Of a stretch of DNA of 53,840 nt, positions 10,854-32,953 are shown one piece after another. Within the stretch, counting starts at the first letter, position 1. Every line of letters starts with the position of its first letter. Position numbers and translations under genes: made by a program. The notes under the pieces were generated by a model that ran no database searches, was not told the DNA's origin, and saw nothing but the letters and a program-made list of their open reading frames with translations. Source of the DNA: an uncultured Bacteroidales bacterium (lineage in GTDB: Bacteria > Bacteroidota > Bacteroidia > Bacteroidales > SZUA-534); contig CBDUWQ010000002.1 in the NCBI GenBank assembly GCA_965370965.1, positions 1 through 53,840 on the forward strand. Reading direction: 5' to 3'.

Positions 10854-11807
10854 TCAGTCATGTGTTGTTTCATCCATAACATGATAATGAGGTCGTTTTT
10901 TCGATTCATCGAATAAAAAACCAATATAGTCGCTCATAATTCCTAAAACAAAAAACTGAATACTAAACATTGCGCTCATAAGTACAACAATTGTTGTATA
11001 ACCTGGCGATGGTTGCCCCATAAATCGCATTACTACAGAAACTAAGCCTACAATAATACTTAAAAAAGCAAACAATAATCCGGTATAAATGCCTATTCGT
11101 AATGGAGCTTTTGTTAAAGCTGAAATTGCTGAAAACGAAAATACTACAAGTTTTAAAAATGAATACTTGCTTTCTCCGGCAACTCTCTTGGGTGCAATAA
11201 ATGGCAATTTCTCTTTATTAAATCCTATTATTTGAATAATCCCTCGTAAAAAACGCGTACGCTCTCTATAATCATTTTTTAAAATATTAACTACCCTTTT
11301 TGATAATAAGAAAAAATCGGAAGCATTTGGTTCAATAGTAACATTTGTCATTTTATTTAAAATGCCATAAAAGAGTTTCGACATAAGGTTTTTTTGAATT
11401 CCCCCATCTTTTCTATCTTCTCTAATCATATTTATTATGTCAGCACCATTTTTATAAGTAGCCACCATATCTTTTAAACAACTTGGTGGATGCTGTAAAT
11501 CACTGTCCATACATACTATTGCATCTGCATTTGAGTAGTCAAGCCCTGCAAGCATTGCAGCTTCATGTCCAAAATTTCTTGAGAAGTTTAGTATTTTTAT
11601 GTTATTGTCATTTTTGGCATAATCGCGCAATATTTTGATACTATTATCTGAGCTGCCATCATTTACAAAAATAATTTGATAAGTAATATCTAATAATTCC
11701 AGCTCCTTTTTGAGCACCGGATAAAAGTATGGCAATGATTCTTGCTCATTATATACTGATACTACAACGCAAAGGTTTACTTCGGTCATTCTAACTGTGT
11801 TTTTCAT
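10854..11807 (-). CDS. GT2 polyprenyl-phosphate glycosyltransferase (GtrB/CsbB/ArnC/DPM1-like)
   Basis: GT-A motifs VVSVYNEQ, VNDGSSDNS and DSDLQHPP are followed by two C-terminal TM helices (LRIGIYTGLLFAFLSIIVGLV, TTIVVLMSAMFSIQFFVLGIM). That layout is typical of the lipid-phosphate-sugar synthases. An alternative ATG at 11789 would remove the 17-nt overlap with the upstream gene. Confidence 0.85.
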   Translation of the reverse strand: MKNTVRMTEVNLCVVVSVYNEQESLPYFYPVLKKELELLDITYQIIFVNDGSSDNSIKILRDYAKNDNNIKILNFSRNFGHEAAMLAGLDYSNADAIVCMDSDLQHPPSCLKDMVATYKNGADIINMIREDRKDGGIQKNLMSKLFYGILNKMTNVTIEPNASDFFLLSKRVVNILKNDYRERTRFLRGIIQIIGFNKEKLPFIAPKRVAGESKYSFLKLVVFSFSAISALTKAPLRIGIYTGLLFAFLSIIVGLVSVVMRFMGQPSPGYTTIVVLMSAMFSIQFFVLGIMSDYIGFLFDESKKRPHYHVMDETTHD

Positions 11808-12540
11808 TTTCTAAAAAAGTATTAGCAATATCATATTTCGGATTTCTACACTCATAAAATCTATATAAACCCAATGATTTATGAATTCCAAAAACATTGC
11901 ATTTTATATCAGAATAAAAATGCTTTAAAACCACCTCAATATCATTGGCACTATTAACATGTTCATGATATAGTAGTGTTGAGTATTTTAAATTGTACTT
12001 GAATTTAAATTCAAGTCCTGTAGTAAACATCCACCCAAGTTTCCACAAAATTGTACCCTCATTAGGAATAGCAACTCGTAATGTTCCTCCTTTATTAAGT
12101 AGTGTGCATGTTTTGGCGACTACATAGGGTAAATTTGTAATATGCTCAAATGTTGCAACAGATGTAATTCTTTCATATTTTTTATTCTCTATTTCACTAA
12201 TGTCTGTATAAATTGAGTTAATTTTTTTAAGTTCAGGTGCGTCCTTAAATAAATCTTTAAAAGGCTCAATTATGTCATAAACAGTATCTGCTTCATATTG
12301 CAATTGGTTTAGTGTTCCGGCTCCAATCTCTAATGTACTCTCAGGTATTTTATTTTTCAAGTCGGCAGCGACCTTTTTATGCATCCACGCTTCCATTTTT
12401 TGAGAAAGTGAAGCAGCAGATGTTCCTCCATCACGGTTACTTTTATAATGATTAGAATAAATTTGCTGATATGCCTCAGGTAAAATTGACCTCTGTTTTG
12501 GGAATTCATGCATAATTGTCTGATGTGTTTTTTCAGTCAT
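11791..12540 (-). CDS. Class I SAM-dependent methyltransferase
   Basis: 249 aa with motif I LEIGAGTLNQL and a post-I acidic residue. The start ATG lies 1 nt after the upstream stop (TGA-T-ATG). Confidence 0.65.
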   Translation of the reverse strand: MTEKTHQTIMHEFPKQRSILPEAYQQIYSNHYKSNRDGGTSAASLSQKMEAWMHKKVAADLKNKIPESTLEIGAGTLNQLQYEADTVYDIIEPFKDLFKDAPELKKINSIYTDISEIENKKYERITSVATFEHITNLPYVVAKTCTLLNKGGTLRVAIPNEGTILWKLGWMFTTGLEFKFKYNLKYSTLLYHEHVNSANDIEVVLKHFYSDIKCNVFGIHKSLGLYRFYECRNPKYDIANTFLENEKHS

Positions 12541-12541
12541 A

Positions 12542-14404
12542 TCATTTAAGTATTACATCAACAAAATTAGAGTTATTCAAATGTGAAATATTTATAGTAT
12601 TCATATTAATATCATCAGCTATTATTTTAACAGGTTTAAAATAGTTGTTAAAATTCCAATATTTATATCTAACATAAGCCTGTTTATTGTTGGAATAAAA
12701 TAGTTTGTTGTTTACTGAATAAGAACTTGAATTATGAGCAAAAGAGATTGTAAAATCTTTATATGATGAGTAATTATAGCAAACTATACTGTCAGAAAGT
12801 ATTATAGTATTTATTGAATCAACAATTGACTTTTGAGATATGGGTCCAAAGGCTATAAACCTATCCATATCTTTCTTACTATAATTATATTTTAAATAGT
12901 ATATATTTTCTCTTTTATTGTTAAGGGCATTTATAAGTTTGTTTTTTGATTTGATAAATTTAATATTCTTATTTGTTTTTAGATGAATATAATTATCCCA
13001 TTTATAGCCTTGACTATACATGTAACTTATTTTTGAATTTTTGTATAGGTTTGGAGAATATACAAAGGCATTTTCAGGCAATGATTTAAATTCATCAGTC
13101 TCAATAAACTCATCAATACATTTGAAAGTATACAATGGCTGCTGAAGGTCTTTAACTGCATGGTAATTAATGTAATCAGTTAAAATTGAACCAATACTAA
13201 TTACAATACCAATTATAGTAATTAAAACTCTTTTTATAATTGAATTTTGTAAAAATGAAACTAATGAGAAGATAATAGTAATTGCAAAAACGACTGAAAA
13301 GAAGCCAAATAATGTTGTAATATAATTATCCATTCCCGGATATTGATATGTATATTTTTCGGTTAATGCTAACGGTATTTGTGGTATATAAATAAATAAA
13401 ACGGCTGCTATAAAAATAATCAGAATCCTTTTTATTTCTTTAATTTTCATAGAATTTAAAAATACAAAAGAGATGCTGCCTATAACTATAGCCTTTATAT
13501 ACCACAAATAATTTGCTGTTTCAAGTATATAACCTAAGTTTTGAATATGATTTTTTAATAGTGGACTTGTGTGCCAAAAAACGGATTTTCCAAAAAAGAA
13601 AAAATAGCAAGGATATGCTCCTCTGGAAAGATCAAAAATTGTATTTAGTCCATCATAAAATTTAAATCCATTAGCTATAGATGTTCCTGAATAATCCGGT
13701 GGATAATATAATCTATAAGCAAAATAGGAAATTACATAAACTAAACCTGTAATAAAAAAAGGTGTCGATACTTTTATAATATTTGATAGTTTGTTTTTTA
13801 TAAAGGCATGCCTTATCTTGTTACTATAATTCAAACTTGATAGAATAATAAGTGGAGCATACAATAAATAAACTTCGTAAAAAATTAAACCTGTAACAAA
13901 AAATACTATTGATAGAATTCTATGTTTTTTAGTATATGATTTGCTATATTTTAGTGCATAATAAATTGATGATAAAACAAAAATAAAAGAGCCTGTAAAA
14001 TACCATTGGAATGATACAATTGGATTATTTCGACCTTTTATGGTAATGAATGTTAAAAGGAGAATATATAATAAATAAGTTATCCATTTGTTGTTAAATA
14101 ATTGTTTAATAATAGCACTTAACAGAATCAAATTTATTGTTAATAGAATAATATTGATTGTTTTTATTACTATTAAGTTATGTATTAAGTATGGTAAGTT
14201 GTAAAGTGGTTTTGTTAACAAAAAATAGAAACGCCCGGCTCTTTCTGCGTAATTTACAGCATCACTCTTGTAATTTTTAATTAAGCCGGATATGAGAAAT
14301 TCGGCATCGTCGCCTGTAGCAATACCTGTTTTAATAAATGGAATTAATACAATAGCTGTTATTGAAGAAAGTAATAAAAAAAGAAATACTTTTTCTGTTT
14401 TCAT
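12542..14404 (-). CDS. Polytopic membrane protein, putative GT-C-type glycosyltransferase (ArnT/PMT/YfhO-like), function uncertain
   Basis: 620 aa. It has roughly 12 predicted TM helices followed by a soluble tail of about 200 aa. An acidic motif, GIATGDDAEF, sits in the first loop, as in GT-C enzymes. It lies in the same sub-operon as a GtrB-like GT2. The coding sequence is extremely AT-rich. Confidence 0.55.
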   Translation of the reverse strand: MKTEKVFLFLLLSSITAIVLIPFIKTGIATGDDAEFLISGLIKNYKSDAVNYAERAGRFYFLLTKPLYNLPYLIHNLIVIKTINIILLTINLILLSAIIKQLFNNKWITYLLYILLLTFITIKGRNNPIVSFQWYFTGSFIFVLSSIYYALKYSKSYTKKHRILSIVFFVTGLIFYEVYLLYAPLIILSSLNYSNKIRHAFIKNKLSNIIKVSTPFFITGLVYVISYFAYRLYYPPDYSGTSIANGFKFYDGLNTIFDLSRGAYPCYFFFFGKSVFWHTSPLLKNHIQNLGYILETANYLWYIKAIVIGSISFVFLNSMKIKEIKRILIIFIAAVLFIYIPQIPLALTEKYTYQYPGMDNYITTLFGFFSVVFAITIIFSLVSFLQNSIIKRVLITIIGIVISIGSILTDYINYHAVKDLQQPLYTFKCIDEFIETDEFKSLPENAFVYSPNLYKNSKISYMYSQGYKWDNYIHLKTNKNIKFIKSKNKLINALNNKRENIYYLKYNYSKKDMDRFIAFGPISQKSIVDSINTIILSDSIVCYNYSSYKDFTISFAHNSSSYSVNNKLFYSNNKQAYVRYKYWNFNNYFKPVKIIADDINMNTINISHLNNSNFVDVILK

Positions 14405-14426
14405 GTTTTTTATAGAGATTTGTTTG

Positions 14427-14434
14427 CAAATGTA
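14427..14434 (-). promoter_or_regulatory. Candidate Bacteroidota -7 box (TAnnTTTG) for the GT-C/methyltransferase/GT2 sub-operon
   Basis: The minus strand reads TACATTTG, 23-30 nt upstream of the ATG at 14404. It sits inside the only sizeable gap (261 bp) in the same-strand array. Confidence 0.3.
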
Positions 14435-14665
14435 ATAAGGTTAAACAATATCTTGTATTTTTTATTAACTGATTTGAATTATGGAGAAACAAAACATGTA
14501 TTTTTCTGTCAATAAAACTCAAGAAAAACTGCGTTACGCTTACCTTCAAAATGGTCATCTCAAAACAAGTTATGACCTACATTTTTCAAGTTTCGCAAGT
14601 CTATAAAACAAAAATAACGACTTTATGAACAGGCTTTATTTAACGTTATAAATATAAACAATCAG

Positions 14666-17600
14666 TTATTCTACTCTTTTCCAATTTTTTAAATTAAATA
14701 TATTATTGGTTACTTCAAAATGTTTGTACACCTTAAGTGTTCTTTGTTCAAGCATATGGCTTTCCCAAGGAGTAAAAATAGTTTGCAGTATTCTGTATGC
14801 TGAATCTATTTTTGTTGGATCATTTTCATTAAAGATAATAGCTGGTGCATCAGCATTACTCATTAAGCGCCAGTCTTCTTTAAGTGGTCCATGTGAATTA
14901 AAATCTTTTGTTAATAATAAAGCATTGAGTCTCCAGTAATATCGTTCTCTTATTTTTGTTAAATCATCTTTATCCCATTTAACAGGCGATTCAAAATCAA
15001 GAGGCCCATCATATTGATACCAAGTTGCCCCATGGTCTGAAACTATGACAATTTTTGTATTGTCGTAAACATCATTGGCTTTCATCCATTTAATCCAAAT
15101 GCTGAATTGTTTAATAAACCATTTGTTATTTTCATATGGTGAAACATTGTTAACCATTTTTCCATTATCGGTTATAATACTCCATGGATTGTGAAGTGCA
15201 TGGAAATGAATATAAATAAAACTTGGTTTATCAGCATTAGTATTTGAAATATATGGCCAAAGTCGGGCAAAGTTGAAATTTTTTAATACTGCAGGTTCAG
15301 TAGATTTATATTGATAGTGAGATAGCCATTTTTTATTGTTGTATATTTTAGGTTTAAAAAAAAGGGGTACGCTATAGAAAATGGCATTTTCATATAAACG
15401 TGTGTACCATATTTCGTGAAAAATACCTAAATGTAAATCATCAGACCATTTTCTCCAACTATCGTCCCATTTGGGAATAAAAGTGTCGAATTGGCTTTTG
15501 TCTATTCCAGAAAGGTGCATTTTGGTACTGGAATATGTGTAACCTTTCGATTTTACTTTTTGAACAAATAGATTGGAAACTTTGGTTATCTTTTCTTTAA
15601 TGGTATGTCCATTATCTTTATTCATCCATGTTACAGAATATTTATGTCCACCAAATAAAGATGTAAGGGATGAGTGAGTATAGTTAGAATGAGATAATGT
15701 GTTGGGATACCATATAAATCCCTCAAAAGTTTCTTTTAGTTCAGGATTCTCCTCGATTATTTGTCTTATAAACCATCCTTGAAATCCATCAGCTAAAAAA
15801 TATATTATATTTTGTTTATCTTTTGAGAAAGCGATTTCTCCTTGCATTGAATTAGCACCTAATTCTGTGTTTATTTTAAAGAAGAATCCAGTTTTTGCGG
15901 TTTTGTATAAACTATTCCCTATTAGAAAAATATTGAGCAAAACTAATACACCGATAATGGCTTTTGTGTATTTTTTGCAATAAACCCATCTCACACCTAT
16001 AAAAACACCAATAAGTAAAAATGCCTCAAGTATATAATTAATTATTGGTGCAGCAAGTTTCTCTTGTTCGGCAAACCTCGATTCTTGCAACGACCCTAAA
16101 TTGATAGGAATTACTGAGCTGTAAATAAATGTTAGTGTAGCGATTACAAGTACAAACAGCAACCATATTCTTTTAATTTTTTTTGGAAGAACAGCAAAAA
16201 GGATTATTACAGTGGTTAAGCTGATTAGAAATAGGTTGAAATTATTTTTTAAAATCTTAATTGCCGGAAAATCAAATGTTTCAGGTGATGATGAAAATAC
16301 AAGTAGTGGATTCCAGAAGAATATAAGGCCAACAATATATAATGTGGCTAATATGTATATAAGCCAGTTGGATTTTGCAGATGTTGCAAGTTTAATTTTA
16401 CGATAATTGAAATAATACGGAATAGTAATTAGTGAAAAAAGAATACCTGACAGAACGAAATTCGACAAAGTGCTATTCTCAACCGTAATGTTAATATTGG
16501 ACATGCTAAGCAAAATTTCTTTGCCGCCAAGGAATACTATTAGGTTAAATATTTGGCAGATAAAGATAAATATTAACAAAAATGAGGTAATGTGTAAAAG
16601 AATGGGTTTTGTGTATTTTGCCATTCGCGTGGTGTATAAAAAACCTATGATTTGCAAAGGAATAAGGGCTGTTATGGAAAGCGCACTGAGGGTTGTATTT
16701 ACCCCTGTAAAATACAATTCACCTGCCAAATAAAAATAAAATGTTAAAAACAGAATCGAAAAATAGATTTTGGGTTTTACCTGAATTTTTGAGATAAGTG
16801 GTTTGTAGTGGTTAAATACCAAAATTGATATACCCGCAAATACTGTCAATATAAAACTGCCAGCTATTACTAAAACAATCCGTAAAATAATATCAGCGTA
16901 ACTATTATTTAGCCTTGCCCAGTTTAATTGGCTAAGTACTGCAACAACAGCCAATACAATAAATGTGCGCTTCAATTTCGGGAGCAATGGACTAACCTGT
17001 GTTTTTAAATCGGCAAACCTAATTACGGTACAGCTTTGTTGCTTTTCTACTTTTCTAAACACTTCGGGGTTTGTAATAAACATCCTAAAAAAGCTAAACA
17101 CATTGTTCATGGTCCAGTAAAGCACCAAGCCCGCCGGTAGTTTAAACAATAGTATAAGGAATATACCTGCTACAATAAGCATCTGTTTGCGTTCCGATGT
17201 GTCGCCATTGCGAGTATAAAAATATGCAGTTAACAGGTTTATTAATGTCATGGCAATAGGCAATATGTTTATTGGGCCAAACAGGGCATCGGGTGCGGCA
17301 AGGTCATTAATAAACCAAAAACTGATACCTGCCAGAGGTTCAAATCCTTCCAGAAATTGGTAAGCAGCAATAAAAAATGGTATCTGCAACAGCAGGCTCA
17401 ATATTGGAATTAAAGCTCGCAACGGGCTATAGTTGTGCTGCCTGTTTAGTGTTTTTAAATAGTAATATCTTTCTTGTCCTTTGTAGCACCGTTTTATCTC
17501 ATCAACCAAAGGTTTCATTTTGTGTTTTACCGCATCGTCACGCTTTTTTGCTTTTTCAATTAAAATAAAAATGGGCAGTAAAAGCAGCGAGATGACAAAA

Positions 17601-17710
17601 CTCAGCAATATAATAGATAACCCATAATTATTAGTTAGGCTGTAACTAAACAGAAACAATTGTTTGATTATGAAAATGAAAGGGGATAGTATTATTTCAA
17701 CAGTATTCAT
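14666..17710 (-). CDS. YidC/Oxa1-like insertase core :: polytopic TM region :: LtaS/sulfatase-like (alkaline-phosphatase superfamily) domain, paralog 3 of 3
   Basis: 1014 aa. Residues 1-215 align motif by motif with the YidC core: YGLSIILLSFVISLLLLPI, a basic coiled region, NYSPLRALIPILSLLLQIPFFIAAY, FWFINDLAAPD, ILPIAMTLINLL and LPAGLVLYWTMNNVFSFF. About 11 TM helices follow. The C-terminal domain carries sulfatase-type motifs: IIYFLADGFQGW, YPNTLSHSNYTHSS, FIYIHFHALHNPW and IVIVSDHGA. Confidence 0.85.
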   Translation of the reverse strand: MNTVEIILSPFIFIIKQLFLFSYSLTNNYGLSIILLSFVISLLLLPIFILIEKAKKRDDAVKHKMKPLVDEIKRCYKGQERYYYLKTLNRQHNYSPLRALIPILSLLLQIPFFIAAYQFLEGFEPLAGISFWFINDLAAPDALFGPINILPIAMTLINLLTAYFYTRNGDTSERKQMLIVAGIFLILLFKLPAGLVLYWTMNNVFSFFRMFITNPEVFRKVEKQQSCTVIRFADLKTQVSPLLPKLKRTFIVLAVVAVLSQLNWARLNNSYADIILRIVLVIAGSFILTVFAGISILVFNHYKPLISKIQVKPKIYFSILFLTFYFYLAGELYFTGVNTTLSALSITALIPLQIIGFLYTTRMAKYTKPILLHITSFLLIFIFICQIFNLIVFLGGKEILLSMSNINITVENSTLSNFVLSGILFSLITIPYYFNYRKIKLATSAKSNWLIYILATLYIVGLIFFWNPLLVFSSSPETFDFPAIKILKNNFNLFLISLTTVIILFAVLPKKIKRIWLLFVLVIATLTFIYSSVIPINLGSLQESRFAEQEKLAAPIINYILEAFLLIGVFIGVRWVYCKKYTKAIIGVLVLLNIFLIGNSLYKTAKTGFFFKINTELGANSMQGEIAFSKDKQNIIYFLADGFQGWFIRQIIEENPELKETFEGFIWYPNTLSHSNYTHSSLTSLFGGHKYSVTWMNKDNGHTIKEKITKVSNLFVQKVKSKGYTYSSTKMHLSGIDKSQFDTFIPKWDDSWRKWSDDLHLGIFHEIWYTRLYENAIFYSVPLFFKPKIYNNKKWLSHYQYKSTEPAVLKNFNFARLWPYISNTNADKPSFIYIHFHALHNPWSIITDNGKMVNNVSPYENNKWFIKQFSIWIKWMKANDVYDNTKIVIVSDHGATWYQYDGPLDFESPVKWDKDDLTKIRERYYWRLNALLLTKDFNSHGPLKEDWRLMSNADAPAIIFNENDPTKIDSAYRILQTIFTPWESHMLEQRTLKVYKHFEVTNNIFNLKNWKRVE

Positions 17711-17716
17711 ATCTGA

Positions 17717-20700
17717 CTATTTTATTTTTTTCCAATTTTTCATATCATAAACATAGTCTTTAACTTCAAAAACAAGATTATTGTGATACTTCTTTCTTGT
17801 TCGCAAATCGGTATGCCATTTTGTATAGTAGGTAGTTATTGTTCTTGAGGCAGAATCGACTTTAGTTGGGTCATTCTCATCAAAAGCAATGGCATAAGCA
17901 TCATTATTGCACATTAACCTCCAATCTTCACGCATTGGTTTTTTTGATTTAAAGTCTTTAACCATCAAAAGGGAGTTTAGTCTCATAAATTCCATCATAG
18001 AAACTTTTTTATCTTTTGTCCAGATTATAGGTGCATCGTAATCTTCAATTTTTTTATGGTAGTGCCACCATGACGGACCGTGGTCTGCAACCAAGATAAT
18101 CTTGGTGTTATCGTAAACATCATTTTCTTTCATCCATTTTAGCCACTTACCAAAAAGGTAGGTAAACCATTGTTGATTTTCATAAGGCGAAACATCTCTT
18201 ACAAATTTATTGTCATCTGATATTAAATCCCAAGGCACATGAGTAAACATTGAATGGATGTAAATGAAATTTGGCTTTTCACTATCACTTACTGATATTT
18301 GAGGTAATAGGCGAATGAAATTGTATTTGTTCAATAAACTTGAATTAATGGGAATATTACTATTTACTAACCACTTGTTTTTGTTATATATTTTTGGTTT
18401 TAAAAATAGCGGTGCACCTGAAAACAACGCATTCTCCCATAATTGAGTGTACCACATTTCATTCTGAAAACCAATGTCTAAATATGAGTTCCAGGTATCA
18501 GACCATGTTGGCAAATAATTATCAATCAAGCCGTGATCTACATCAGAATATTTTAAGCTATTGCCTGTAAAATAATAACCTTTATCGTTGATTTTATTGT
18601 AAAATACTTCTGTTGATTTAGTAATTTTTTGAGTTATTGTGTGTTCATCGTCAGAGTTCATGTTGGCAATGGTAAAGCCGGAACCACTTGTCATTGAAGG
18701 AACAGAAGAATAAGTGTAATTTGATGTTGAGATTGTGTTTGGATACCAAATAAAGCCATTATAAATATCAAGTAAGGTAGAATCTTCTTTTAGGATATCA
18801 TGCATATACCATCCTTGAGCACCATCAATAATAAAATACAAAACATTTTTTTGTGTTTTTGAAAAAGGTATTTTATTTAAATAGGAGTTGGTTTCTTGTT
18901 GATTATCATCAATATCATGTTTTTTTGAAAAGAAATCGTCTGTGCGAAAGGATAAAAACAAACTTTGCCCAATTAAGAACAGATTGAGGGCAATAAGCGC
19001 AACTAATATTTTACGGTTTAATTGTTTTTTTACTAACCATGTACTGCCTGCAAAAACTGCCATTAACAATAAGGCCTCTAAAAAATAATAAATAGCTTTT
19101 GCTGCAAGTCTTTCTTCATGAGAGAAAAAGTTTACTTGAAGAGTGCCTACATCGTAAGGAATAATTGAACTGTATAAAAAAACTATTATTGAAATAGAAA
19201 GACCCAATATTTGCAATAAATATTTTAACTTTTTTGGAGTAATTAAGTATAGCCCAATACCGATAGCGATTGTTATAATAAAGGGTGTAAAGTTATTAGA
19301 AAAGAAGTTAATTGCCGGAAAACTAAAATTTTGTGGAAATGATGAATAAACAATTAGTGGATTCCAATAAAATACCAAACCGTCAATATAGATAAGTGAC
19401 AATAAATATGTTGCCGAGTGTATTGGAGGTAATAATTTAAAAGAATTTCTGTTGTATTTTAAATAAAATGGCAATGCTAATAGTGTAAATAAAATGCCCT
19501 GCAACCAAACTATATAGTAAGAGCTTTCGCTAACACTATATAACAGGTTAAAGAAGTGAAAATCTGTTGGTTTACCGCTATTTAACAATACCTTTATACC
19601 AATAGTTTGACTTAATAGTATTGTTATTAGCAAAAACGAGACTATCTGATATACATAATAGTTACTCTTTTTTGCAATACGTATAAAATAAAACATACCA
19701 GCAAATTGTACGAGCAATACAAACAATAATGCAACAACAGATAGCGTAGTGTTAGTGCCAGTAAAATAGTATTGAGATGAGAAATGAAAATAGAGCGATA
19801 AAAACAGTAAGGTAAAATAGAGTATTGGAGGTATTTCTATTTTTGATACTATTGGTTTGAGATAATCAGCAATAACAATTGCAATCCAAACAAATACAGT
19901 AAGAACAAAGCTTCCAATTAATGCACTAATTAACCTTATAACAATGCTATCAAAACTATTTTGAGTGGCCCAATTTAGTTGACTTAGAACACTTATTATT
20001 ATTAATGTGATTAATGATTTTTTTAGTATAGATGATTTTTGTGCAAAATTGATTCTAATTTTAATAAAGCTGATAGTATCTGCTGATTTCCTTTTGCCTA
20101 CTTTTCTAAACACTTCGGGGTTTGTAATAAACATCCTAAAAAAGCTAAATACATTGTTCATGGTCCAGTAAAGCACCAAGCCCGCCGGCAGTTTAAACAA
20201 TAGTATAAGGAATATACCTGCTACAATAAGCATCTGTTTGCGTTCCGATGTGTCGCCATTGCGAGTATAAAAGTAAGCAGTTAACAGGTTTATTAATGTC
20301 ATGGCAATAGGCAATATGTTTATTGCACCAAACAGGGCATCGGGTGCAGCAAGGTTTTTAATAAACCAAAATTGCACCCCCTGCATAGGTTCAAAATGCT
20401 CTAAAAATTGGTAAGCAGCTATAAAAAACGGTATCTGCAACAGCAAACTTAATATTGGTATTAAGGCACGTAAAGGGCTGTAGTTATGCTGTCTGTTTAA
20501 GGTTTTTAAATAGTAATACCGCTCTTGCCCTTTGTAGCAACGCTTAATTTCGTTAAGCTGCGGTTTCATTTTGCGCTTTACGGCATCGTCTTTCTTTTTT
20601 GCTTTTTCAATTAAAATAAAAATGGGTAGTAACAGTGCCGATATGGCAAAGCTTAAAAGTATAATTGCCCAACCATAGTTGCCTGTTATGTTATAGCTAA

Positions 20701-24428: not shown

Positions 24429-24658
24429 TACAGGTCTTTTTCAATATCATCCATTGCTATATCAAAATCAATAGCTGAATTTGGGTTTTTTCTGTAATCT
24501 TCAAGTCGTTGACTTACCAAGTCTTTATGCCATTCAGGAATATCAATACTTTCTTGCTCAATTCCTTTATATTTATTTTTGAGGTTATTCCATTCATTTA
24601 TAGGAATAAATACTCCTGTTGTTTGTCCGGTGCTATCTGAGATATATTGTAAGTTCAT
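24428..24658 (-). CDS. Antitoxin, putative addiction-module component
   Basis: 76 aa and acidic. The C-terminal EWHKDLVSQRLEDYRKNPNSAIDFDIAMDDIE resembles the addiction-module-component family. It is translationally coupled to the toxin gene. Confidence 0.65.
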   Translation of the reverse strand: MNLQYISDSTGQTTGVFIPINEWNNLKNKYKGIEQESIDIPEWHKDLVSQRLEDYRKNPNSAIDFDIAMDDIEKDL

Positions 24659-26059: not shown

Positions 26060-26464
26060 TTAATCATCTAATTCTTTAAAAACATCATTAACAAATGGTT
26101 TCATTGTTTTTGATATATTATCAGTATAAAAATTAATCAATAATCCTTGTGGCTTTTTTAATAACTTCATATATGTCAATAATTGTGCCTCATGAACCGG
26201 TAAAATATTTTGTGCAGCTTTAAGCTCAACAATAACAGTTTTATCAATTAGCAAATCCAGTCTTAAATCAACATCCATTTCCAAGTCTCCATATGTAACA
26301 GGTACTCTAATTTGTTGCTCAACATTAAAACCTTGTAATTCCAACTCATACTTCAAACACTTTTCATATACAGACTCCAATAAACCAGGACCTAATTCTT
26401 TGTGTACCTTTATTGCACACCCTACTATCTTATATGACAGCTTTGTAACATCATTTTTTGTCAT
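26060..26464 (-). CDS. GxxExxY family protein (PD-(D/E)XK-like fold)
   Basis: 134 aa with the signature motif GPGLLESVY and the downstream DLLIDKTVIVELKA. The size is typical for this family. Confidence 0.85.
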   Translation of the reverse strand: MTKNDVTKLSYKIVGCAIKVHKELGPGLLESVYEKCLKYELELQGFNVEQQIRVPVTYGDLEMDVDLRLDLLIDKTVIVELKAAQNILPVHEAQLLTYMKLLKKPQGLLINFYTDNISKTMKPFVNDVFKELDD

Positions 26465-26532: not shown

Positions 26533-27645
26533 TTATTTACTAAATATTTTTCCTAAAACCTCTTTCGTAACATACCTAGGGTTATTACTTAACCGCTCAG
26601 TATTTACATTGTTGATTATTACATTTTTATCAAATTTTGTAATTATCTCACTTATTGATATGCTAATACCTATGCTGTTAAAAAATATTTCAATTTTATT
26701 ATTCGACTCTTCAATATCAATACCCAATACATCCAAAACTTTATTAATCCTTGCCCTTACTGCCAATGCTCCCCTTTTATCATTACAATCGGTATTGGTT
26801 GCATCATAATTATAATTCATAAAAAAAGGCAAACTTAAAGCAACTGCATGTCCGTGAGGAATATCATAATAACTTGTAAACGCATACGATATTGCATGTG
26901 GGGCAGTGGTTTTTGTGATATTAATTGCTTTGCCTGCCAAAAACGAGGCTTCAAGCATCTGCTCTTTTGCAGGTTTATTGTTCTCTAAAACAGCCTTTTG
27001 CAGATTTTCCCAAATTAATTCAATAGCCTTTAAAGCATACACTTGCGATTCTGTAGTTGCATTTACGCTCCAAACCGATTCAACTGCCTGACAAAATGCA
27101 TCTAACCCTGTGCAAGCAGTTAGGTACTTATTTGCCGACATTGAAAACTCCGATGATAAATAGACATAATTGGGCAAAATGGCACTATGAGCCACCGAGT
27201 ATTTTACTTTATCAATATAAACAACAGCAAAATGTGTAGCCTCAGCTCCTGTTCCTGCTGTTGTAGGAATCGATAATAGCTGTGTTTTGTTATCGGTTAT
27301 TTGTGCTTTGCCAAGTACAATACTCTCCAAATCATTATTTTGATGAGCAAAAACACTAATTAGTTTTGCCATATCCAAAACACTTCCGCCACCTATTGCC
27401 ACTATAAGTTCATAATTACCTTGTTTAAAAAGTGCGATACCTTTTTGTAGGTCTTTAAGTTGTGGATTGATATTGAAATCAGAAAAAGAGGTATATTCAA
27501 TGTTTTCAAGCAACATATCAATAAACCTGTCTCCGCCTGTTGCAGAATAAGATTTTTTCCCTCTTATCAGAAAAACTTTTTGCGGATTTATTTTGCTAAT
27601 CTGTTGTTTTAATTCCGATAGCTTTTTTATAACTATTTGACCCAT
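26533..27645 (-). CDS. Iron-containing (group III) alcohol dehydrogenase, phosphonoacetaldehyde-reductase-like
   Basis: 370 aa with motifs AIGGGSVLDMAK, PTTAGTGAE and HGHAVA. Its position directly after PEP mutase and phosphonopyruvate decarboxylase parallels the PhpC/FomC/DhpG context. Confidence 0.75.
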   Translation of the reverse strand: MGQIVIKKLSELKQQISKINPQKVFLIRGKKSYSATGGDRFIDMLLENIEYTSFSDFNINPQLKDLQKGIALFKQGNYELIVAIGGGSVLDMAKLISVFAHQNNDLESIVLGKAQITDNKTQLLSIPTTAGTGAEATHFAVVYIDKVKYSVAHSAILPNYVYLSSEFSMSANKYLTACTGLDAFCQAVESVWSVNATTESQVYALKAIELIWENLQKAVLENNKPAKEQMLEASFLAGKAINITKTTAPHAISYAFTSYYDIPHGHAVALSLPFFMNYNYDATNTDCNDKRGALAVRARINKVLDVLGIDIEESNNKIEIFFNSIGISISISEIITKFDKNVIINNVNTERLSNNPRYVTKEVLGKIFSK

Positions 27646-27742: not shown

Positions 27743-27770
27743 GTCTATAATAATTAAACACCATTTTTTT

Positions 27771-27834: not shown

Positions 27835-28962
27835 TTAATCTTCAAGGTTTTTCATAAAATCCTTTTTATTATCAACAGGTTTTATGGTTGGTCGTCCCAA
27901 ATTATCGCGCGAACCCACCCTCACTTTTATCTCAATTAAAGCAGGACAAGTATCTTTAGAAATCCCCTTTAATGCCAAATCAAGCTCTTTGGCTATTGAA
28001 ACCGTTGCTGCCGATTTATATTTGCTTGCCATGGCAAGAGCAGGAATATCAATATTAAAGCTTACTGTAGGCTGTCCACCAACCGACTCGTGCGCTCCGT
28101 TATTAATAATTATATGAACAAAATTTTTCGGCTCCCGGCTCCCGGTAATAGCTAACGAGCCCATATGCATTAGTAAAGCACCATCGCCATCAAAACAGAT
28201 AACTTTTTTGTTAGGTTTGGCCAATGCTATTCCCACAGCAATTTGACTTGAATGACCCATAGAACCAACTGTTAAAAAATCGGAGTGGTGTGGCTGATTT
28301 AACTCTTCTCTACACTCAAAAAGTTCGCGCGATGTTTTTCCTGTGGTAGAAACAATAATCTCATCGCCTGATAACTGATTAACAATTTGCTTAATTGCAT
28401 CTTCGCGGCAAAGCTCAAAATTATTTTCAACACTCCCCTTAATGGAATACTTATCGAACGTATTTTTTTTGATAACTAAGGCATGTGGTGTATTCTCTTT
28501 TTTTATTTCTGCCAAAGCATTATTCAGTTGAGTTTGTGCTTCTGCTTCATCTTGACTTAATACGGTATAAGGAATTTTCATTGCTTTAAGCAAATTCAGG
28601 GTAACCTCGCCCTGTGTAATATGCTGTGGTTCATCTTTTATACCAGGCTCACCACGCCAACCAATCATTAACAAAACAGGTATATTATAAACCTGCTTAT
28701 CGGTTAACGAAAGCAATGGATTTACCGCATTGCCAATACCCGAATTTTGCATATACACCATGGGTATTTTATTGGTAGCCATGTGGTAACCGGCAGCCAA
28801 AGCAATAGCATTGCCCTCATTTGCTGCAATTATATGGTTTTCAACCGGTGCATTATCGGTAATATATGCACAAATATTCTTTAATAAAGAATCGGGAATA
28901 CCGCTAAAAAACTCAACTTGGTTATTTACCAGCCAGCTATAAAAATTTTTAGGATTAATCAT
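27835..28962 (-). CDS. ppd: Phosphonopyruvate decarboxylase (TPP-dependent)
   Basis: 375 aa with the TPP motif GDGALLMHMGSLAITG..IIINNGAHESVGGQ. The start overlaps the PEP-mutase stop (TAATG). Confidence 0.88.
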   Translation of the reverse strand: MINPKNFYSWLVNNQVEFFSGIPDSLLKNICAYITDNAPVENHIIAANEGNAIALAAGYHMATNKIPMVYMQNSGIGNAVNPLLSLTDKQVYNIPVLLMIGWRGEPGIKDEPQHITQGEVTLNLLKAMKIPYTVLSQDEAEAQTQLNNALAEIKKENTPHALVIKKNTFDKYSIKGSVENNFELCREDAIKQIVNQLSGDEIIVSTTGKTSRELFECREELNQPHHSDFLTVGSMGHSSQIAVGIALAKPNKKVICFDGDGALLMHMGSLAITGSREPKNFVHIIINNGAHESVGGQPTVSFNIDIPALAMASKYKSAATVSIAKELDLALKGISKDTCPALIEIKVRVGSRDNLGRPTIKPVDNKKDFMKNLED

Positions 28963-30263
28963 TATTTTGTCCCCGGAATTAAGTTAAGAATCTCTTTTAT
29001 TGACATACACTTGTCATTTGCATCAAACGAGCGCTCGTATGTGAGAATTGATTTTGCCACATCAACCATAGCAGGGTATGCACTACGCAACAAATGGTTG
29101 GCATAAATTACAATATTTACCCCGGCATCTATCAGTTGCTTTTCGTACATATGATTGTAACTCGATGGCACAACAACCAATGGTACCCTGGTTTCAAACT
29201 CATTATACCTTTTACAGAATTCCATAATCTCTTTACCGTCTTTCTCTTTGCTGTGAATCATCACGCCATCGGCACCTGCCTCAACATATGCTTTTGCCCG
29301 GGTAATGGCATCATCCATCCCCTGTTTAAGTATAAGGCTCTCAATGCGTGCTATAATCATAAAGCTTTTTGTTACCTGAGCTTTTTTTCCTTCTTTTATT
29401 TTATGGCAGAAATCTTCAATTTTAGCTTGTGTTTGAGGCACATCGGTTCCAAAAAGCGAATTCTTTTTTAAGCCGGTTTTATCTTCGATAATTACAGCCG
29501 AAACACCAAGACGCTCCAATGTTTTTACCGTAAAAACAAAATGCTCGGGAATTCCCCCTGTATCGCCATCATAAATAATTGGCTTTGTGGTAACCTCTAA
29601 AATATCGTTTAATCCGTGCAGGCGAGAAGTAACGTCAACCGCCTCAATATCGGGTTTACCTTTGGCTGTTGAGTCGGTAAGACTGCTTAACCACATGGCA
29701 TCAAACTCTTTTTTACGACCTTCAACTTCAACATCAATATTTTCAACAATCAAACCGGTAAGTCCATTGTGTGCCTCCATAACCTTTACAACCGGTTTCG
29801 ATTCAATAAGCCTGCGCAAGCGTTCCATCCTTATTTCAGGCGTAGTGCCAATCTCTTTAAGACTTTGGTTTAGCTGGGTTGATGATATTCCTTTTGTATA
29901 TGGCACTTCATAAAGCTTGCCTCCCCATTCCGATAAGGTGTCTATAACCTTTTGACGAGTTTTTTGCTGTACCCCATTTTTCCAATCATCACCATGTACA
30001 ACAAAATCGGGTTTTAGCTTAATTAAATTAGGCGCATAGTCTAATTCATTTTGAGGTACAACCTCTAAAACTCCTTTAATGCTTTCTATAATAATTTTAC
30101 GTTGCTCATACTTTAAAGTAGGCAGACGTTTGTAACCGGCAATAGCCTTGTCGGTAAGCAAACCAATAACTACATCACCTAATTTACTAGCCTCTTTAAT
30201 AATATTTAAGTGCCCCGGATGAATCATATCGGCACTCATGCCTACATATACTTTTTTAGCCAT
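28962..30263 (-). CDS. pepM: Bifunctional cytidylyltransferase (TagD-like, HxGH) :: phosphoenolpyruvate phosphomutase
   Basis: 433 aa. The N-terminal roughly 130 aa carry HPGH (HxGH) and [10 protein letters not shown] (RTEGISTT-like) cytidylyltransferase motifs. The C-terminal part carries the PepM-discriminating EDKX5NS motif, here [10 protein letters not shown], plus DGDTGG. Confidence 0.92.
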
Positions 30264-30276
30264 AATATTTTTTTTG

Positions 30277-30284
30277 CAAAAATA
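30277..30284 (-). promoter_or_regulatory. Candidate -7 box (TATTTTTG on the minus strand) for the phosphonate operon
   Basis: It matches TAnnTTTG, 14-21 nt upstream of the pepM ATG. It lies in the 73-bp divergent gap shared with the MBOAT gene. Confidence 0.3.
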
Positions 30285-30336
30285 TAAATAATTGTTGTTT
30301 ATTTGCTGCTTTTATTGATAATAAAGATAAATTATA

Positions 30337-31779
30337 ATGCTATTTAGTTCACTTGTTTTTCTCTATATTTTTTTACCTCTCACTTTATTGGGATATTATT
30401 TGACCCCACTAAAATTCAAAAATTCCTTTTTGTTTTTGGCAAGTATGGTGTTTTTTGCATGGGGTGGAGCAAGCTATAGCCTTTTACTCATTTTTTCTAT
30501 TATTCTTAATTTTATTTTTGGAATACTTATAGGAAAAAAACATAAAAAGAAATTTTGGTTAAGCTTAGGTGTATCTATAAACTTGCTATTTTTAATTGTA
30601 TTTAAATATGCCAATTTTATTATTGAAAATATTAATGAAGTTTTCTCGTTTATAAATCTCTCTCCCATTAATAATCCTACCATCCTATTGCCCATTGGAA
30701 TATCATTTTACACTTTTCAGGCAGTATCATATTTAATTGATGTTTACCGAAAAACGTGCGATGTACAACGAAATTTCATTAACCTTGGTTTATACATTTC
30801 GCTTTTTCCACAGTTAATTGCAGGTCCAATTGTGCGATATTACGATATTCAAAAACAGCTAAAAAACAGAACCCATTCTGTAGCTATGTTTAGCTCAGGA
30901 ATACAACGTTTTGTATTGGGTTTTGCAAAAAAAGTTTTAATTGCCAATACCATGGCTTATGTTGCCGATGAGGTATTTGCATTGCAGCCAAATGGGATTA
31001 GTTTGGGCTTAGCATGGATAGGGATAATAGCTTACTCAATGCAAATATATTATGACTTTGCAGGATATTCAGATATGGCTATTGGACTGGCACGTATGTT
31101 TGGCTTTGAACTACTTGAAAACTTTAATTTTCCTTACATAGCCAAATCGATAAAAGAGTTTTGGAGGCGGTGGCATATTTCACTGTCAAATTGGTTTCGT
31201 GACTACCTGTATATCTCACTTGGAGGAAACAGGTTAGGAAACAGACGCACAATTATCAATTTATTTATAGTGTTTTTTATTACAGGCTTTTGGCATGGCG
31301 CCAGTTGGAACTTTTTAATTTGGGGACTTGTACATGGCTTGTTTTTGGTATTGGAGCGAACAAAATTTGGAGAAATACTAAAAAAGCTGCCCTCATTTAT
31401 GCAATCATTTTATACTATTTTTATTGCCGTAATGGCATGGGTATTATTTAGAGCCGATACCCTAACTTATGCTACGCAGTTCTATAAATCGTTATTTGGA
31501 TTAAACACCGCAGACATAAACTATTTTGTTTTCTTAAAAATAGTAACCAGAGAATCTGTTTTTATATTAATAGTAGCAGTTTTAGGGGCTTTGGGTGTTT
31601 ATCAGAAAATTTACGATTGGGCAAAAAAGTATATCCAAAAAAGCAGTATCAAAATACAATATTCATTGACAGTAATTAAACATATTGTGGTGACTGCTTT
31701 TGTAATTATAGTTTTACTATACGGTACAGGCAGCCTAGTGTTAGGGGCATACAACCCATTTATCTATTTTAGGTTTTAA
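30337..31779 (+). CDS. MBOAT-family membrane O-acyltransferase (AlgI/DltB/PatA-like)
   Basis: 480 aa and polytopic. The signature FWRRWHISLSNWFRDYLYISLGGNR contains the conserved His, and WHGASWNF lies downstream. Confidence 0.88.
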   Translation: MLFSSLVFLYIFLPLTLLGYYLTPLKFKNSFLFLASMVFFAWGGASYSLLLIFSIILNFIFGILIGKKHKKKFWLSLGVSINLLFLIVFKYANFIIENINEVFSFINLSPINNPTILLPIGISFYTFQAVSYLIDVYRKTCDVQRNFINLGLYISLFPQLIAGPIVRYYDIQKQLKNRTHSVAMFSSGIQRFVLGFAKKVLIANTMAYVADEVFALQPNGISLGLAWIGIIAYSMQIYYDFAGYSDMAIGLARMFGFELLENFNFPYIAKSIKEFWRRWHISLSNWFRDYLYISLGGNRLGNRRTIINLFIVFFITGFWHGASWNFLIWGLVHGLFLVLERTKFGEILKKLPSFMQSFYTIFIAVMAWVLFRADTLTYATQFYKSLFGLNTADINYFVFLKIVTRESVFILIVAVLGALGVYQKIYDWAKKYIQKSSIKIQYSLTVIKHIVVTAFVIIVLLYGTGSLVLGAYNPFIYFRF

Positions 31780-31807
31780 AAAAAAAAATTTACTAAAGAA
31801 TAATTCT

Positions 31808-32953
31808 GTGAAACAGGCGATTAAATATAATCATTTTTTCATACTCTTAGTTTTTACTATTATATTAACTCTGTTTTTTGTTAATCAAACCATACCATTT
31901 ATTACCGATAAAGAGTATGATGAAAACAAAAAGAAAGCTGAACTGCCAGAATTTGACATTAACCATTTAGATGCTTATCCAAAACAATTTGAAGCCTACC
32001 TGAGTGATAACTTTAGCTTGCGCGGATATTTTTTAAAAACCATGGGTAATATTAATGCAACTTTTTGGAAAAAGTCACCAAAACCCGATAAACTAATCAT
32101 AGGAAATGATGGCTGGTTATTTAATGTTGAAAAAGAATTTGATACTTATAATGGTAAAAGGAATTTTACACAAGAGCAGCTTATCGCTGTGGTTAATGAA
32201 TTTAAATATCGCAAAAAGGTGTTAGACAGTATGGGTATTGAAATGGTCATTGTTATTAATCCAACAAAATACTCCATATATCCTGAATATTTACCCAAAT
32301 TTTTGGTTAACAATTATGCAACAACAAGCACCACGCAATTATTAGATGCAATACGCACCAAAACCAATGTTAATATTATTTACACCAAAGATTTTTTGTT
32401 GCCACAGAAAAAAAACCATAGACTATATTTAAAAGGTGATAATCATTGGAATACAATAGGGGGCTATTATGCTGCAAGAGGTGTTTTAAGTAAATTGAAA
32501 GTAACAAAGAATATTCCGCCTATCCCAATTACTGATTTTTGTGTGGACACAACTTTTAACTTTACAGGTAATCTTGCAAAAATGGCAGCTGATGCTGAAC
32601 TTTTTTCAGAAACTAAACCATTATTAAAATTGTGTAAAGATGATGCTATCGAATTTGCCCGCCATAAATATCCTCCCATAAAAGGATTCCCTTATCCATG
32701 GGCATATCAAAAAAGCTTTAAGTCGAATAACAGCAGCTTGCCCAATGCTTTAATTATAAGAGATTCATTTGGTGCTGCCTTAATACCATATATGAAAAAT
32801 ATGTTTCATTATAGCACTTTTATTTTTGATTCGTGGCATTATGAGTTAAATATTGATATTATTAAAAAAGAGCAACCCGATGTTGTTATATTTATGGCAT
32901 TAGAAAGCCTTTTGCCAAACTTTTATACACATAGGGTTAAAGGTATTAGTTAG
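31808..32953 (+). CDS. AlgJ/AlgX/DltD-like (DHHW-type) periplasmic O-acyltransferase partner
   Basis: 381 aa with an N-terminal anchor helix and the motif KGDNHWNTIGGYYA (compare DxHW of AlgJ-type proteins). It lies immediately downstream of the MBOAT gene. The start is a GTG. Confidence 0.7.
   Translation: MKQAIKYNHFFILLVFTIILTLFFVNQTIPFITDKEYDENKKKAELPEFDINHLDAYPKQFEAYLSDNFSLRGYFLKTMGNINATFWKKSPKPDKLIIGNDGWLFNVEKEFDTYNGKRNFTQEQLIAVVNEFKYRKKVLDSMGIEMVIVINPTKYSIYPEYLPKFLVNNYATTSTTQLLDAIRTKTNVNIIYTKDFLLPQKKNHRLYLKGDNHWNTIGGYYAARGVLSKLKVTKNIPPIPITDFCVDTTFNFTGNLAKMAADAELFSETKPLLKLCKDDAIEFARHKYPPIKGFPYPWAYQKSFKSNNSSLPNALIIRDSFGAALIPYMKNMFHYSTFIFDSWHYELNIDIIKKEQPDVVIFMALESLLPNFYTHRVKGIS

Follow-up and report, generated by a model that had tools for sequence, protein, structure and literature searches.

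How phosphonates are tailored and carried from the cytoplasm to the cell surface downstream of their synthesis has been called enigmatic (PMC6697681), and gene clusters of the 2-hydroxyethylphosphonate (HEP) type are among the least explored (PMC8942020). Here we analyse a stretch of 53,840 nucleotides from an uncultured Bacteroidales bacterium (GenBank assembly GCA_965370965.1, contig CBDUWQ010000002.1, positions 1 to 53,840; hereafter the window), in which phosphonate genes at 10854-32953 lie together with genes for a TagF-like transferase and for three membrane proteins, each joining a YidC/Oxa1-like domain to a domain of the alkaline phosphatase (AP) superfamily (YS proteins). We propose, with a probability of roughly 0.55, that the operon encodes a chromosomal envelope-tailoring system that places HEP on an extracytoplasmic target.

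Among described systems, the early fosfomycin pathway of Streptomyces (Fom1, Fom2, FomC) has the same three proteins, the same domain fusion and the same predicted activated intermediate, HEP linked to cytidine monophosphate (CMP-HEP). The window differs from it in having no Fom3, Fom4 or FomD and in belonging to a diderm Bacteroidales host, and CMP-HEP, which is a transient handle for C-methylation in the fosfomycin pathway, is predicted here to be the donor of a membrane transferase. The Pnt pathways (PMC6697681, PMC8942020) likewise use a nucleotide-activated phosphonate for the surface and a cytidylyltransferase-Ppm fusion, but they make 2-aminoethylphosphonate (AEP) with a transaminase and employ LicD or CDP-alcohol phosphatidyltransferases, whereas the window is predicted to make HEP with an iron-type alcohol dehydrogenase (Fe-ADH) and has a TagF-like protein and YidC-AP fusions in their place.

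On the membrane side, LtaS/LtaP, EptA/MCR-1, OpgB and PbgA resemble the YS proteins in their polytopic anchor, extracytoplasmic AP domain, Thr nucleophile, Asp/His metal site and frequent multiple paralogues, while the window proteins are set apart by ~16 transmembrane (TM) helices instead of 5, by the fused YidC-like domain, by the lack of a sequence-level match and by a donor that is presumably a dedicated phosphonate-bearing lipid and not phosphatidylglycerol or phosphatidylethanolamine. TagF/TarL and the TagF-like capsule polymerases of Gram-negative bacteria (PMC5974469), from which it is known that teichoic-acid-like chemistry exists in diderms, share PF04464, a donor with CMP as leaving group and membrane association with the TagF-like protein of the window, although the latter forms a separate subfamily with an N-terminal TM helix, sits obligately beside a YidC-like gene, has no KpsMT or TagGH exporter in the window and is predicted to use a phosphonate donor. 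Three-component glycosylation systems (GtrB/GtrA/GtrX, ArnC/ArnEF/ArnT, CsbB/GtcA/YfhO) load a lipid carrier, flip it and use a variable periplasmic transferase, and, as in the window, it is the donor parts that are conserved and the acceptor part that varies; they consist of other protein families and carry a sugar, not a phospho(no)-alcohol, and the likeness is one of analogy only. YidC/Oxa1 insertases, for their part, share the five-TM core fold of the window's YidC-like domain, which scores above the family cutoffs, but this domain has Ser for the groove Arg and a KGxERYYY motif, and is fused to or lies beside envelope-polymer enzymes.

Full-text searches turned up no paper in which a phosphonate cluster is connected to partners of the YidC or TagF type; neither of the two main surveys of phosphonate gene neighbourhoods (PMC6697681, PMC8942020) mentions such partners, and a passage of the latter says of some Selenomonas pepM clusters that they 'encode multiple sulfatases'. 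A first-pass annotation of the window had suggested that the pathway was undescribed, and we too found no description of it: the operon is apparently undescribed, joining functions of known kinds (phosphonyl tailoring and teichoic-acid-like or EptA-like decoration) to a new and unexpected component.

Listing of open reading frames (ORFs) and family scans of the window place 13 co-directional minus-strand genes between 30263 and 10854, with two further genes diverging from them, and every gene that the first-pass annotation had named is present at 10854-32953. The 22 kb region is a conserved core with optional extras and not one invariant toolkit. In order of transcription, the core genes are as follows.

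28962-30263, minus strand: fusion of CTP_transf_like and PEP_mutase domains (PF01467 + PF13714, TIGR02320)
27835-28962, minus strand: Ppd (TIGR03297)
26533-27645, minus strand: Fe-ADH (PF00465/PF25137)
24709-25953, minus strand: TagF-like protein with one N-terminal TM helix (PF04464)
20769-24065, minus strand: YS3, 1098 aa (PF02096 89.8 bits, PF00884 23.5 bits)
17717-20761, minus strand: YS2, 1014 aa (PF02096 93.2 bits, PF00884 21.3 bits)
14666-17710, minus strand: YS1, 1014 aa (PF02096 92.2 bits, PF00884 32.5 bits)

The core order PepM-Ppd-ADH-TagF-YS recurs collinearly in more than 60 Bacteroidales loci whose flanks are unrelated (homologous loci compared with the window are given L-numbers below; L001 is from a metagenome-assembled genome (MAG) of Salinivirgaceae). 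When the comparison started from YS proteins, all five look-ups had the cytidylyltransferase-PepM fusion, Ppd, Fe-ADH and the TagF-like gene immediately upstream in the same orientation; the carriers were Lentimicrobium sp. S6 (GCA_013166635.1), a MAG of Salinivirgaceae, a Draconibacterium sp. assembly and another assembly, both of multi-megabase size, and a metagenome scaffold. Starting from the TagF-like protein, a scan of 185,579 species genomes returned 30 loci, all from Bacteroidales and all in the same order wherever the contig allows, and the corresponding metagenome scan added 80 more. L001-L033 all have this identical order, as does the high-identity half of L037-L116, and in three loci (L002, L119 and L120) the five genes constitute the entire unit, surrounded by unrelated neighbours. 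A YidC-like gene lies at most two genes from the TagF-like gene in 93 of the 96 loci with enough flank, PepM is present in 38 of the 49 with at least 4.5 kb upstream, and the association is kept in permuted gene order in the distant loci L074, L083, L091, L108-L110 and L113. The number of YS copies varies: among 33 long PepM-bearing loci, 17 have one, 11 have two and five have three. These data support a functional link of the phosphonate genes to those for the TagF-like and AP-superfamily proteins, and the co-occurrence on which the first-pass proposal had been made to depend is decisively found elsewhere, in the YS-seeded loci and in the TagF-seeded loci from genomes and metagenomes.

The first gene encodes a fusion of a cytidylyltransferase (CT) domain (residues 5-138) and a phosphoenolpyruvate (PEP) mutase, PepM (residues 149-432). 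PepM scores 416.5 bits against TIGR02320 (cutoff 319.55), and its translation contains EDKxxxxxNS, the motif separating true Ppm from isocitrate-lyase relatives (PMC6697681). The CT domain matches PF01467 (E 1.5e-13) and aligns over 134 aa with the Fom1 CyTase domain (PDB 5x3d), scoring 206 bits with 67.2% identity, against 48.7 bits for TagD (1coz) and 64.7 bits for ethanolamine-phosphate cytidylyltransferase. The protein is a PF01467-Ppm fusion of the Fom1 type; of the earlier description, a TagD-like cytidylyltransferase fused to PepM, the fusion stands, and the TagD-like label, true only in a distant sense, gives way on these scores to a Fom1-like one. Such fusions are also found in AEP clusters (PMC8942020), and the Fom1 CyTase makes CMP-HEP from HEP and cytidine triphosphate, as stated in a passage of PMC6697681 that cites Cho 2017. 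Ppd reaches 506.3 bits against TIGR03297 (cutoff 312.5), its start overlaps the PepM stop codon and it adjoins PepM in every related locus. Every Bacteroidales locus has the Fe-ADH gene after Ppd and before the TagF-like gene; its product, at 167 bits, falls below the cutoff of the phosphonate-specific model TIGR03405 (Phn_Fe-ADH, 423.7), and is probably a phosphonoacetaldehyde reductase making HEP. Since an Fe-ADH follows Ppd and the cluster holds no aminotransferase or AEP transaminase, we strongly infer that CMP-HEP is the product of the pathway, and homology together with conserved context supports the whole route from PEP through phosphonopyruvate, phosphonoacetaldehyde and HEP to CMP-HEP. 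A CMP-activated carbon-phosphorus (C-P) compound, which the first-pass annotation had proposed too, is in our reading the likely substrate of the system, on the Fom1-like CT domain, the Fe-ADH and the missing aminotransferase.

The TagF-like protein belongs to PF04464 (37.9 bits, cutoff 22.1, residues 190-344), which bears out its earlier placement as a TagF-family phosphotransferase, and has a TM helix at residues 13-31. It is 72-88% identical across Bacteroidales and 31-43% identical to orthologues from Spirochaetaceae and metagenomes. Its subfamily (364 clusters at 50% identity, E<=1e-30) is invariant in the motifs APTW, RPHPQ and DxSG and in His147, His153 and His261, the last of these within RPHPQ; in Staphylococcus epidermidis TagF, the two catalytic histidines are H444 and H584. 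Judging by family and context, the protein is a candidate CMP-HEP:acceptor phosphonyltransferase. Some members of the subfamily are fused to a GT4 glycosyltransferase (P0259, 784 aa), which hints that in some systems sugar and phospho-alcohol are polymerised in alternation; we also observed GT4 fusions, or a ~600-aa C-terminal extension without a family match, in P0253 and P0255 (~1025 aa) and in L112.

The three YS proteins are tandem paralogues, and each consists of an N-terminal YidC/Oxa1-like domain, 11 further TM helices and a periplasmic AP-superfamily domain. The YidC-like domain (residues 29-214) scores 90-93 bits against PF02096 (cutoff 35) and 97-98 bits against TIGR03592 (cutoff 84.3), and has the five-TM core fold; the databases annotate these fusions simply as 'membrane protein insertase YidC'. 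An AlphaFold2 (AF2) model of YS1, built from the family alignment of 70 sequences (A2, in which YS2 is P0011 and YS3 is P0059), has a mean predicted local distance difference test (pLDDT) score of 86 and a predicted TM-score of 0.77, and Foldseek matches its N-terminus to Bacillus halodurans YidC (3wo7) with a TM-score of 0.65 and a root-mean-square deviation of 3.9 Å. The domain departs from its relatives in the groove, where Ser41 occupies the position of the conserved Arg (R366 of E. coli YidC) in 70 of 70 sequences, and in the distinctive motif KGxERYYY.

The C-terminal domain is more distant from its relatives. Matches to PF00884 (Sulfatase/AP) are weak, at 32.5, 21.3 and 23.5 bits for YS1, YS2 and YS3 against a cutoff of 25, and phmmer of the domain against all PDB sequences gave no LtaS, EptA or sulfatase match at E<=10. 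Foldseek, in turn, matches the C-terminal ~400 residues of the YS1 model to PbgA/YejM (6xlp), LtaS (2w5r, 4uor), LtaP, MCR-1 (9nww) and many sulfatases, with E-values between 1e-7 and 1e-5 and TM-scores that reach only 0.3-0.5. D641, T678, H840 and D892-H893 are invariant in the 70 sequences, YS3 carrying all the invariant catalytic residues as well, and they form the metal-ligand and Thr-nucleophile pattern of the phosphotransferase branch (LtaS, EptA, OpgB), with the active-site roles in YS1 assigned by motif order and not by superposition. The nucleophile regions of the paralogues read NYTHSS, NYTYSS and KITTTS, the Thr being invariant; with this Thr in place and the C/SxPxR motif missing, we rejected a reading of the domains as sulfatases. 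The AP domain is a distant member of the alkaline phosphatase superfamily and not an LtaS orthologue: it has the AP fold, the Thr nucleophile and the Asp/His ligands, lacks sequence relatedness to LtaS, and is carried by ~16-17 helices in YS1 (the YidC core included) in place of the five-TM LtaS anchor. The first-pass name for these proteins, LtaS-like ectoenzymes, accordingly holds for fold and active site and not for sequence-level membership, and it overlooked what most distinguishes them, the fused YidC-like domain. The periplasmic location proposed at the same time is again what topology predicts, because 11 helices lie between the YidC core, at its cytoplasmic end, and the AP domain and the positive-inside rule is obeyed, K/R-rich and K/R-poor loops alternating perfectly along the helices of the AF2 model.

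The two halves of the YS proteins differ in their conservation. The YidC-like domains of YS1-YS3 are 89-95% identical in protein and 88-93% in DNA (high-identity stretches at 17016-17346, 20067-20397 and 23371-23701), while the TM and AP parts are only 34-45% identical, and most invariant columns of the family fall within the YidC-like domain. Such a pattern suggests gene conversion, or very strong constraint, limited to the domain. YS3 also contains an internal duplication of a TM hairpin at about residues 250-360, where LSQLNWIFNNSFNGLALRLL is repeated as LSQINWALKFSFNGFILRLL, which explains its ~84 extra residues. A second YidC-AP gene in L001 (13089-16777) is divided between two products, one of 804 aa (YidC+TM) and one of 374 aa (AP), which could reflect a pseudogene, an error of assembly or a naturally split gene.

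Genes for TagF-like, YidC-like and AP-ectoenzyme proteins also recur jointly beyond Bacteroidales, in Spirochaetaceae and in marine and gut metagenomes, where the YidC-like part is often a separate gene. In this split order, seen in L035, L036, L084, L121 and many others, the TagF-like gene is followed by a stand-alone gene for a YidC-like protein of 229-237 aa (mini-YidC) and then by one to three AP membrane proteins; MCL2704788.1 and MCL2704787.1, the latter a YidC-like protein of 229 aa, form such a split pair in a Spirochaetaceae MAG, and shorter YidC-AP fusions, of 720-830 aa, exist as well. The mini-YidCs share the motifs KGxERYYY and PAGxVLYWTxNN and have Ser or Asn at the R366 position, and distant TagF-like relatives (31-47% identity) keep an N-terminal 'YIDPxxxS' helix. 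The cargo genes vary: L084 has a TagD-sized cytidylyltransferase and a HAD phosphatase, L035 an IspD-like nucleotidyltransferase, L121 a 323-aa CTP_transf_like protein and L100 heptose-nucleotide-type genes, while PepM is found in L074, L083, L091, L108-L110 and L113 in rearranged orders. Judged by these neighbours, the triad is more general than phosphonates and also serves non-phosphonate cytidylyl-activated cargo, a point that the first-pass annotation had not noticed. L083 and L091 have the order PepM, TagF-like, YidC-AP, Ppd, with no detectable Fe-ADH in either and a second PepM-like gene in L083; their phosphonate cargo may not be HEP. Two non-phosphonate triads have neighbours of a further kind, genes for a PAP2 phosphatase and a UbiA prenyltransferase in L121 (12063-13963) and an RXYLT1_C-like gene in L036 (2560-3564), which may give a clue to the acceptor or to the carrier lipid.

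In the mechanism that we propose, the membrane-anchored TagF-like enzyme would attack CMP-HEP and transfer the phosphonyl-HEP unit to a membrane-bound hydroxyl acceptor at the cytoplasmic face. CMP-HEP is isosteric with a CDP-alcohol, its free primary hydroxyl being analogous to that of CDP-glycerol, and chain extension via this HEP hydroxyl would be possible. The putative acceptor would most simply be a common lipid, for example diacylglycerol or a glycolipid: because the minimal five-gene operons come without primer glycosyltransferases or exporters, common cellular lipids and acceptors are probably used, and the characterised membrane AP transferases (LtaS, EptA, OpgB) take single head groups from diacylglycerol-based lipid donors. 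The hydrophilic groove of the YidC-like domain, without its canonical Arg, might then let the anionic head group cross the membrane, and the AP domain would take the unit onto Thr678 as a Thr-phosphonyl intermediate and pass HEP to an envelope acceptor, a step that we liken to those of LtaS, EptA and OpgB with phospholipid donors. Phospholipid scrambling by E. coli YidC has been described in vitro (PMC11047089). As the donor parts of the system are conserved and the TM and AP parts divergent, and as the latter come in one to three copies, the system would fit several acceptor specificities or a division into primase and polymerase roles; conserved GtrA/GtrB beside variable GtrX in periplasmic glycosylation offers a parallel.

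Several points weigh against this proposal. The Fe-ADH score below the phosphonate-specific cutoff leaves the choice of HEP over another phosphonoacetaldehyde derivative to be read from gene context. Two profiles of the TagF-like protein gave no usable relative when run against the sequences of solved structures, nor did the AP domain, and relatedness to LtaS and TagF is therefore read from Pfam and from fold. The GT4 fusions point to cytoplasmic co-polymerisation in at least some systems, and the YidC-like domain may be no more than an insertase dedicated to a large polytopic enzyme. A scan for sigma-70 promoters and terminators and a search for the Bacteroidetes -33/-7 pattern were uninformative on co-transcription, with counts at chance and none in the relevant intergenic gaps.

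The insertase alternative, in which the YidC-like domain or mini-YidC is the private insertase or chaperone of the AP enzyme and the substrate crosses spontaneously or via housekeeping scramblases, is one that we regard as possible, though on the unlikely side. The YidC/Oxa1 fold is known to act in insertion, the domain scores above the family cutoffs, and the client in this case would have ~16 TM helices and a periplasmic domain of 400 aa. The groove Arg, which is important for insertase function in Gram-positive YidCs, is however invariably Ser or Asn; the domain is the most conserved part and is homogenised between paralogues while its supposed client diverges; and as a separate gene it directly follows the gene for the single-TM TagF-like protein, sometimes genes away from the nearest AP gene (L084). 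We think it unlikely that the locus follows a route like that of wall teichoic acid (WTA) or capsule, in which the TagF-like protein would polymerise HEP in the cytoplasm, with or without alternating sugars, on a lipid-linked primer, after which the YS proteins would export the polymer by way of their YidC-like/TM region and their AP domains would join it en bloc to an envelope acceptor. We know of no passage of a polymer through a YidC groove, the AP-superfamily membrane transferases so far characterised move single head groups from lipid donors, and the minimal operons L002, L119 and L120 lack a primer glycosyltransferase as well as any ABC or Wzx exporter; these weigh against a route that can claim the free primary hydroxyl of CMP-HEP, as in CDP-glycerol, the GT4 fusions of the TagF-like subfamily (P0259), and the fact that TagF-family enzymes are classically polymerases, those of Gram-negative bacteria making teichoic-acid-like capsules (PMC5974469). 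The first-pass annotation had gone further and seen analogues of nearly every teichoic-acid function in the region, a claim that is overstated: no DltA/DltC, TagO/TagA/TagB, TagGH or LCP is found among the region's ORFs, and TagO/TagA/TagB, TagGH and LCP are missing from the minimal operons L002, L119 and L120 too; a WTA pathway as a whole is not present.

That the sub-clusters are unrelated loci which merely lie side by side is very improbable. It would fit the ParE/antitoxin pair and the PD-(D/E)XK gene that interrupt the array of the window, the divergent MBOAT and AlgX genes, the GC content of 0.26-0.29 at the GT2/methyltransferase/620-aa end compared with up to 0.39 elsewhere, and the occurrence of relatives of the 620-aa protein without phosphonate genes; for the core, however, it is ruled out by collinearity in dozens of loci and persistence through rearrangements, and it is partly true for the two accessory modules only. 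A diffusible small molecule like fosfomycin, with the AP proteins as hydrolases or as resistance or export factors, we consider scarcely tenable. The Fom1-type fusion, with its CT domain 67% identical, followed by Ppd and Fe-ADH does correspond to Fom1, Fom2 and FomC, but a Fom3-type radical-SAM/B12 methyltransferase, the HppE epoxidase and FomD are absent from the region's ORFs, and all conserved downstream partners are membrane transferase-type proteins with a periplasmic catalytic domain; with the late fom genes missing, we rejected this reading.

If envelope tailoring with HEP is what the operon does, the conserved unit of five genes should suffice for an entire phosphonate-to-surface route, and movement of an anionic lipid head group by a YidC/Oxa1 fold would be the first physiological case of the scramblase activity known in vitro. 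The proposal is directly testable, as the carriers include Lentimicrobium sp. S6, which is probably an isolate, and Draconibacterium genomes, whose genus includes cultured members. Surface groups with a C-P linkage withstand phosphatases and phosphodiesterases, and a C-P coat could matter for interactions with phages, predators and hosts and for the environmental phosphonate pool. The wider distribution of the triad raises the question of whether teichoic-acid-like decoration with dedicated CDP- or CMP-activated donors is common to diderms of two phyla. A more speculative extension, which we hold to be rather doubtful, is that the triad is a general diderm machine for building teichoic-acid-like material outside the membrane, with the YidC fold as a dedicated head-group translocator, and that its product in Bacteroidales is a polyphosphonate 'teichoic acid' of HEP units joined via the HEP hydroxyl. 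To our knowledge such a polymer class is undescribed; if it exists, the HEP esters found in high-molecular-weight organic phosphorus of the environment might come from it.

The remaining genes of the region are the following.

26060-26464, minus strand: PD-(D/E)XK_3 nuclease-family gene (PF13366, E 3e-40)
24428-24658, minus strand: Unstab_antitox/RelB-like antitoxin, 76 aa (PF09720)
24132-24428, minus strand: ParE-type toxin, 98 aa (PF05016)
12542-14404, minus strand: 620-aa polytopic membrane protein (no Pfam or NCBIfam match)
11791-12540, minus strand: class I methyltransferase-like protein (PF13489 E 1.7e-4, below cutoff)
10854-11807, minus strand: glycosyltransferase GT2 of the GtrB/ArnC/PgfS type (PF00535 103.5 bits)
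30337-31779, plus strand: MBOAT protein of the AlgI/PatA/DltB superfamily (PF03062 111 bits)
31808-32953, plus strand: AlgX/AlgJ-type SGNH O-acyltransferase partner (PF16822 65 bits, cutoff 26.5)

The full order of transcription on the minus strand is thus CT-PepM, Ppd, Fe-ADH, PD-(D/E)XK_3, TagF-like, antitoxin, ParE, YS3, YS2, YS1, 620-aa protein, methyltransferase-like protein and GT2, with the MBOAT and AlgX-type genes diverging from PepM. Four of these genes (methyltransferase-like, the ParE/antitoxin pair and PD-(D/E)XK_3) had gone unlisted before.

Two accessory modules adjoin the core in a minority of loci. MBOAT is found there in nine of the 33 long PepM-bearing loci (~27%) and is paired with the AlgX-type gene in L001, L003 and L066, while the 620-aa protein occurs in two of the 33 (~6%), and the window, L008 and L044 are the only loci in which the trio of GT2, methyltransferase and 620-aa genes comes after the YS genes, the methyltransferase-like protein being kept with it in L008 (62% identity) and L044. 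Both modules are facultative, and the idea of a 22-kb teichoic-acid toolkit is too broad: O-acylation by MBOAT/AlgX and glycosylation by the trio would be optional add-ons in the window genome. Taken as a whole, the first-pass observation is partly confirmed and its interpretation partly supported.

MBOAT had been called DltB-like and its neighbour DltD/AlgJ-like. The former scores 161 bits against the DltB model TIGR04091 (cutoff 375) and the region contains neither DltA nor DltC, and on these grounds we rejected D-alanylation and membership in a Dlt system; the partner, which has an N-terminal membrane anchor (TM helix at residues 11-29), keeps its AlgX-type assignment (PF16822) and loses the Dlt-system role. 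The better reading, on family matches, is that the two form a predicted O-acetylation pair of the AlgI/AlgJ or PatA/PatB type. GT2, with scores of 235 bits for PgfS and 157 bits for ArnC that are both below the equivalog cutoffs, combines a catalytic domain with two C-terminal TM helices (residues 242-260 and 273-291), the architecture of GtrB/CsbB that had been ascribed to it. The 620-aa protein belongs to a rare family (14 homologues), has a C-terminal beta-sandwich domain and a near-invariant D32-D33 after TM1; its AF2 model (pLDDT 72) has STT3, Emb, ALG9/3 and DPY19, mostly of the GT-C class, as top Foldseek matches, all of them weak (E 0.02-1, TM-score <=0.29). It is possibly a GT-C-type transferase, as had been suggested, and an analogy of the GT2/620-aa pair with CsbB/YfhO is plausible but unproven and would apply to a minority of loci only. 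A distant homologue sits with GT2, MBOAT, ALGX and PMT_2 genes and no PepM. We also compared the 620-aa protein with unannotated neighbours of the clusters in L003 and L001, which turned out to be different proteins.

The trio lies at the end of the array with the lowest GC content (0.26-0.29 at 12000-15000, against 0.35-0.39 over Ppd/PepM), which is consistent with a separate origin. The ParE/antitoxin pair stands between the TagF-like gene and YS3, where related loci have no gene, and the PD-(D/E)XK_3 gene between Fe-ADH and the TagF-like gene, where it is missing in nearly all related loci (L012 has one unlinked copy); because other loci are without them, these genes are inserts in the array. 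Three ATPase genes of the AAA_14/DUF4143 or ATPase_2/DUF234 kind flank the cluster (7739-8932, minus strand; 9407-10741, plus strand; 33051-34244, plus strand) and, together with the toxin-antitoxin pair and the nuclease gene, suggest that the region readily takes up insertions. Salinivirgaceae and other Bacteroidales MAGs supply the closest homologues, in keeping with the Gram-negative-type genome recognised in the first-pass annotation, and the remainder of the window is of a housekeeping kind (PFOR, NusB, YajC, CoaE and two tRNAs). At its left end, an ORF of at least 1194 aa (1-3582, minus strand), cut by the border of the window, has a signal-peptide-like start, MKKICLISIVFIFAFASAFG, and beta-helix-like, NG-rich repeats.

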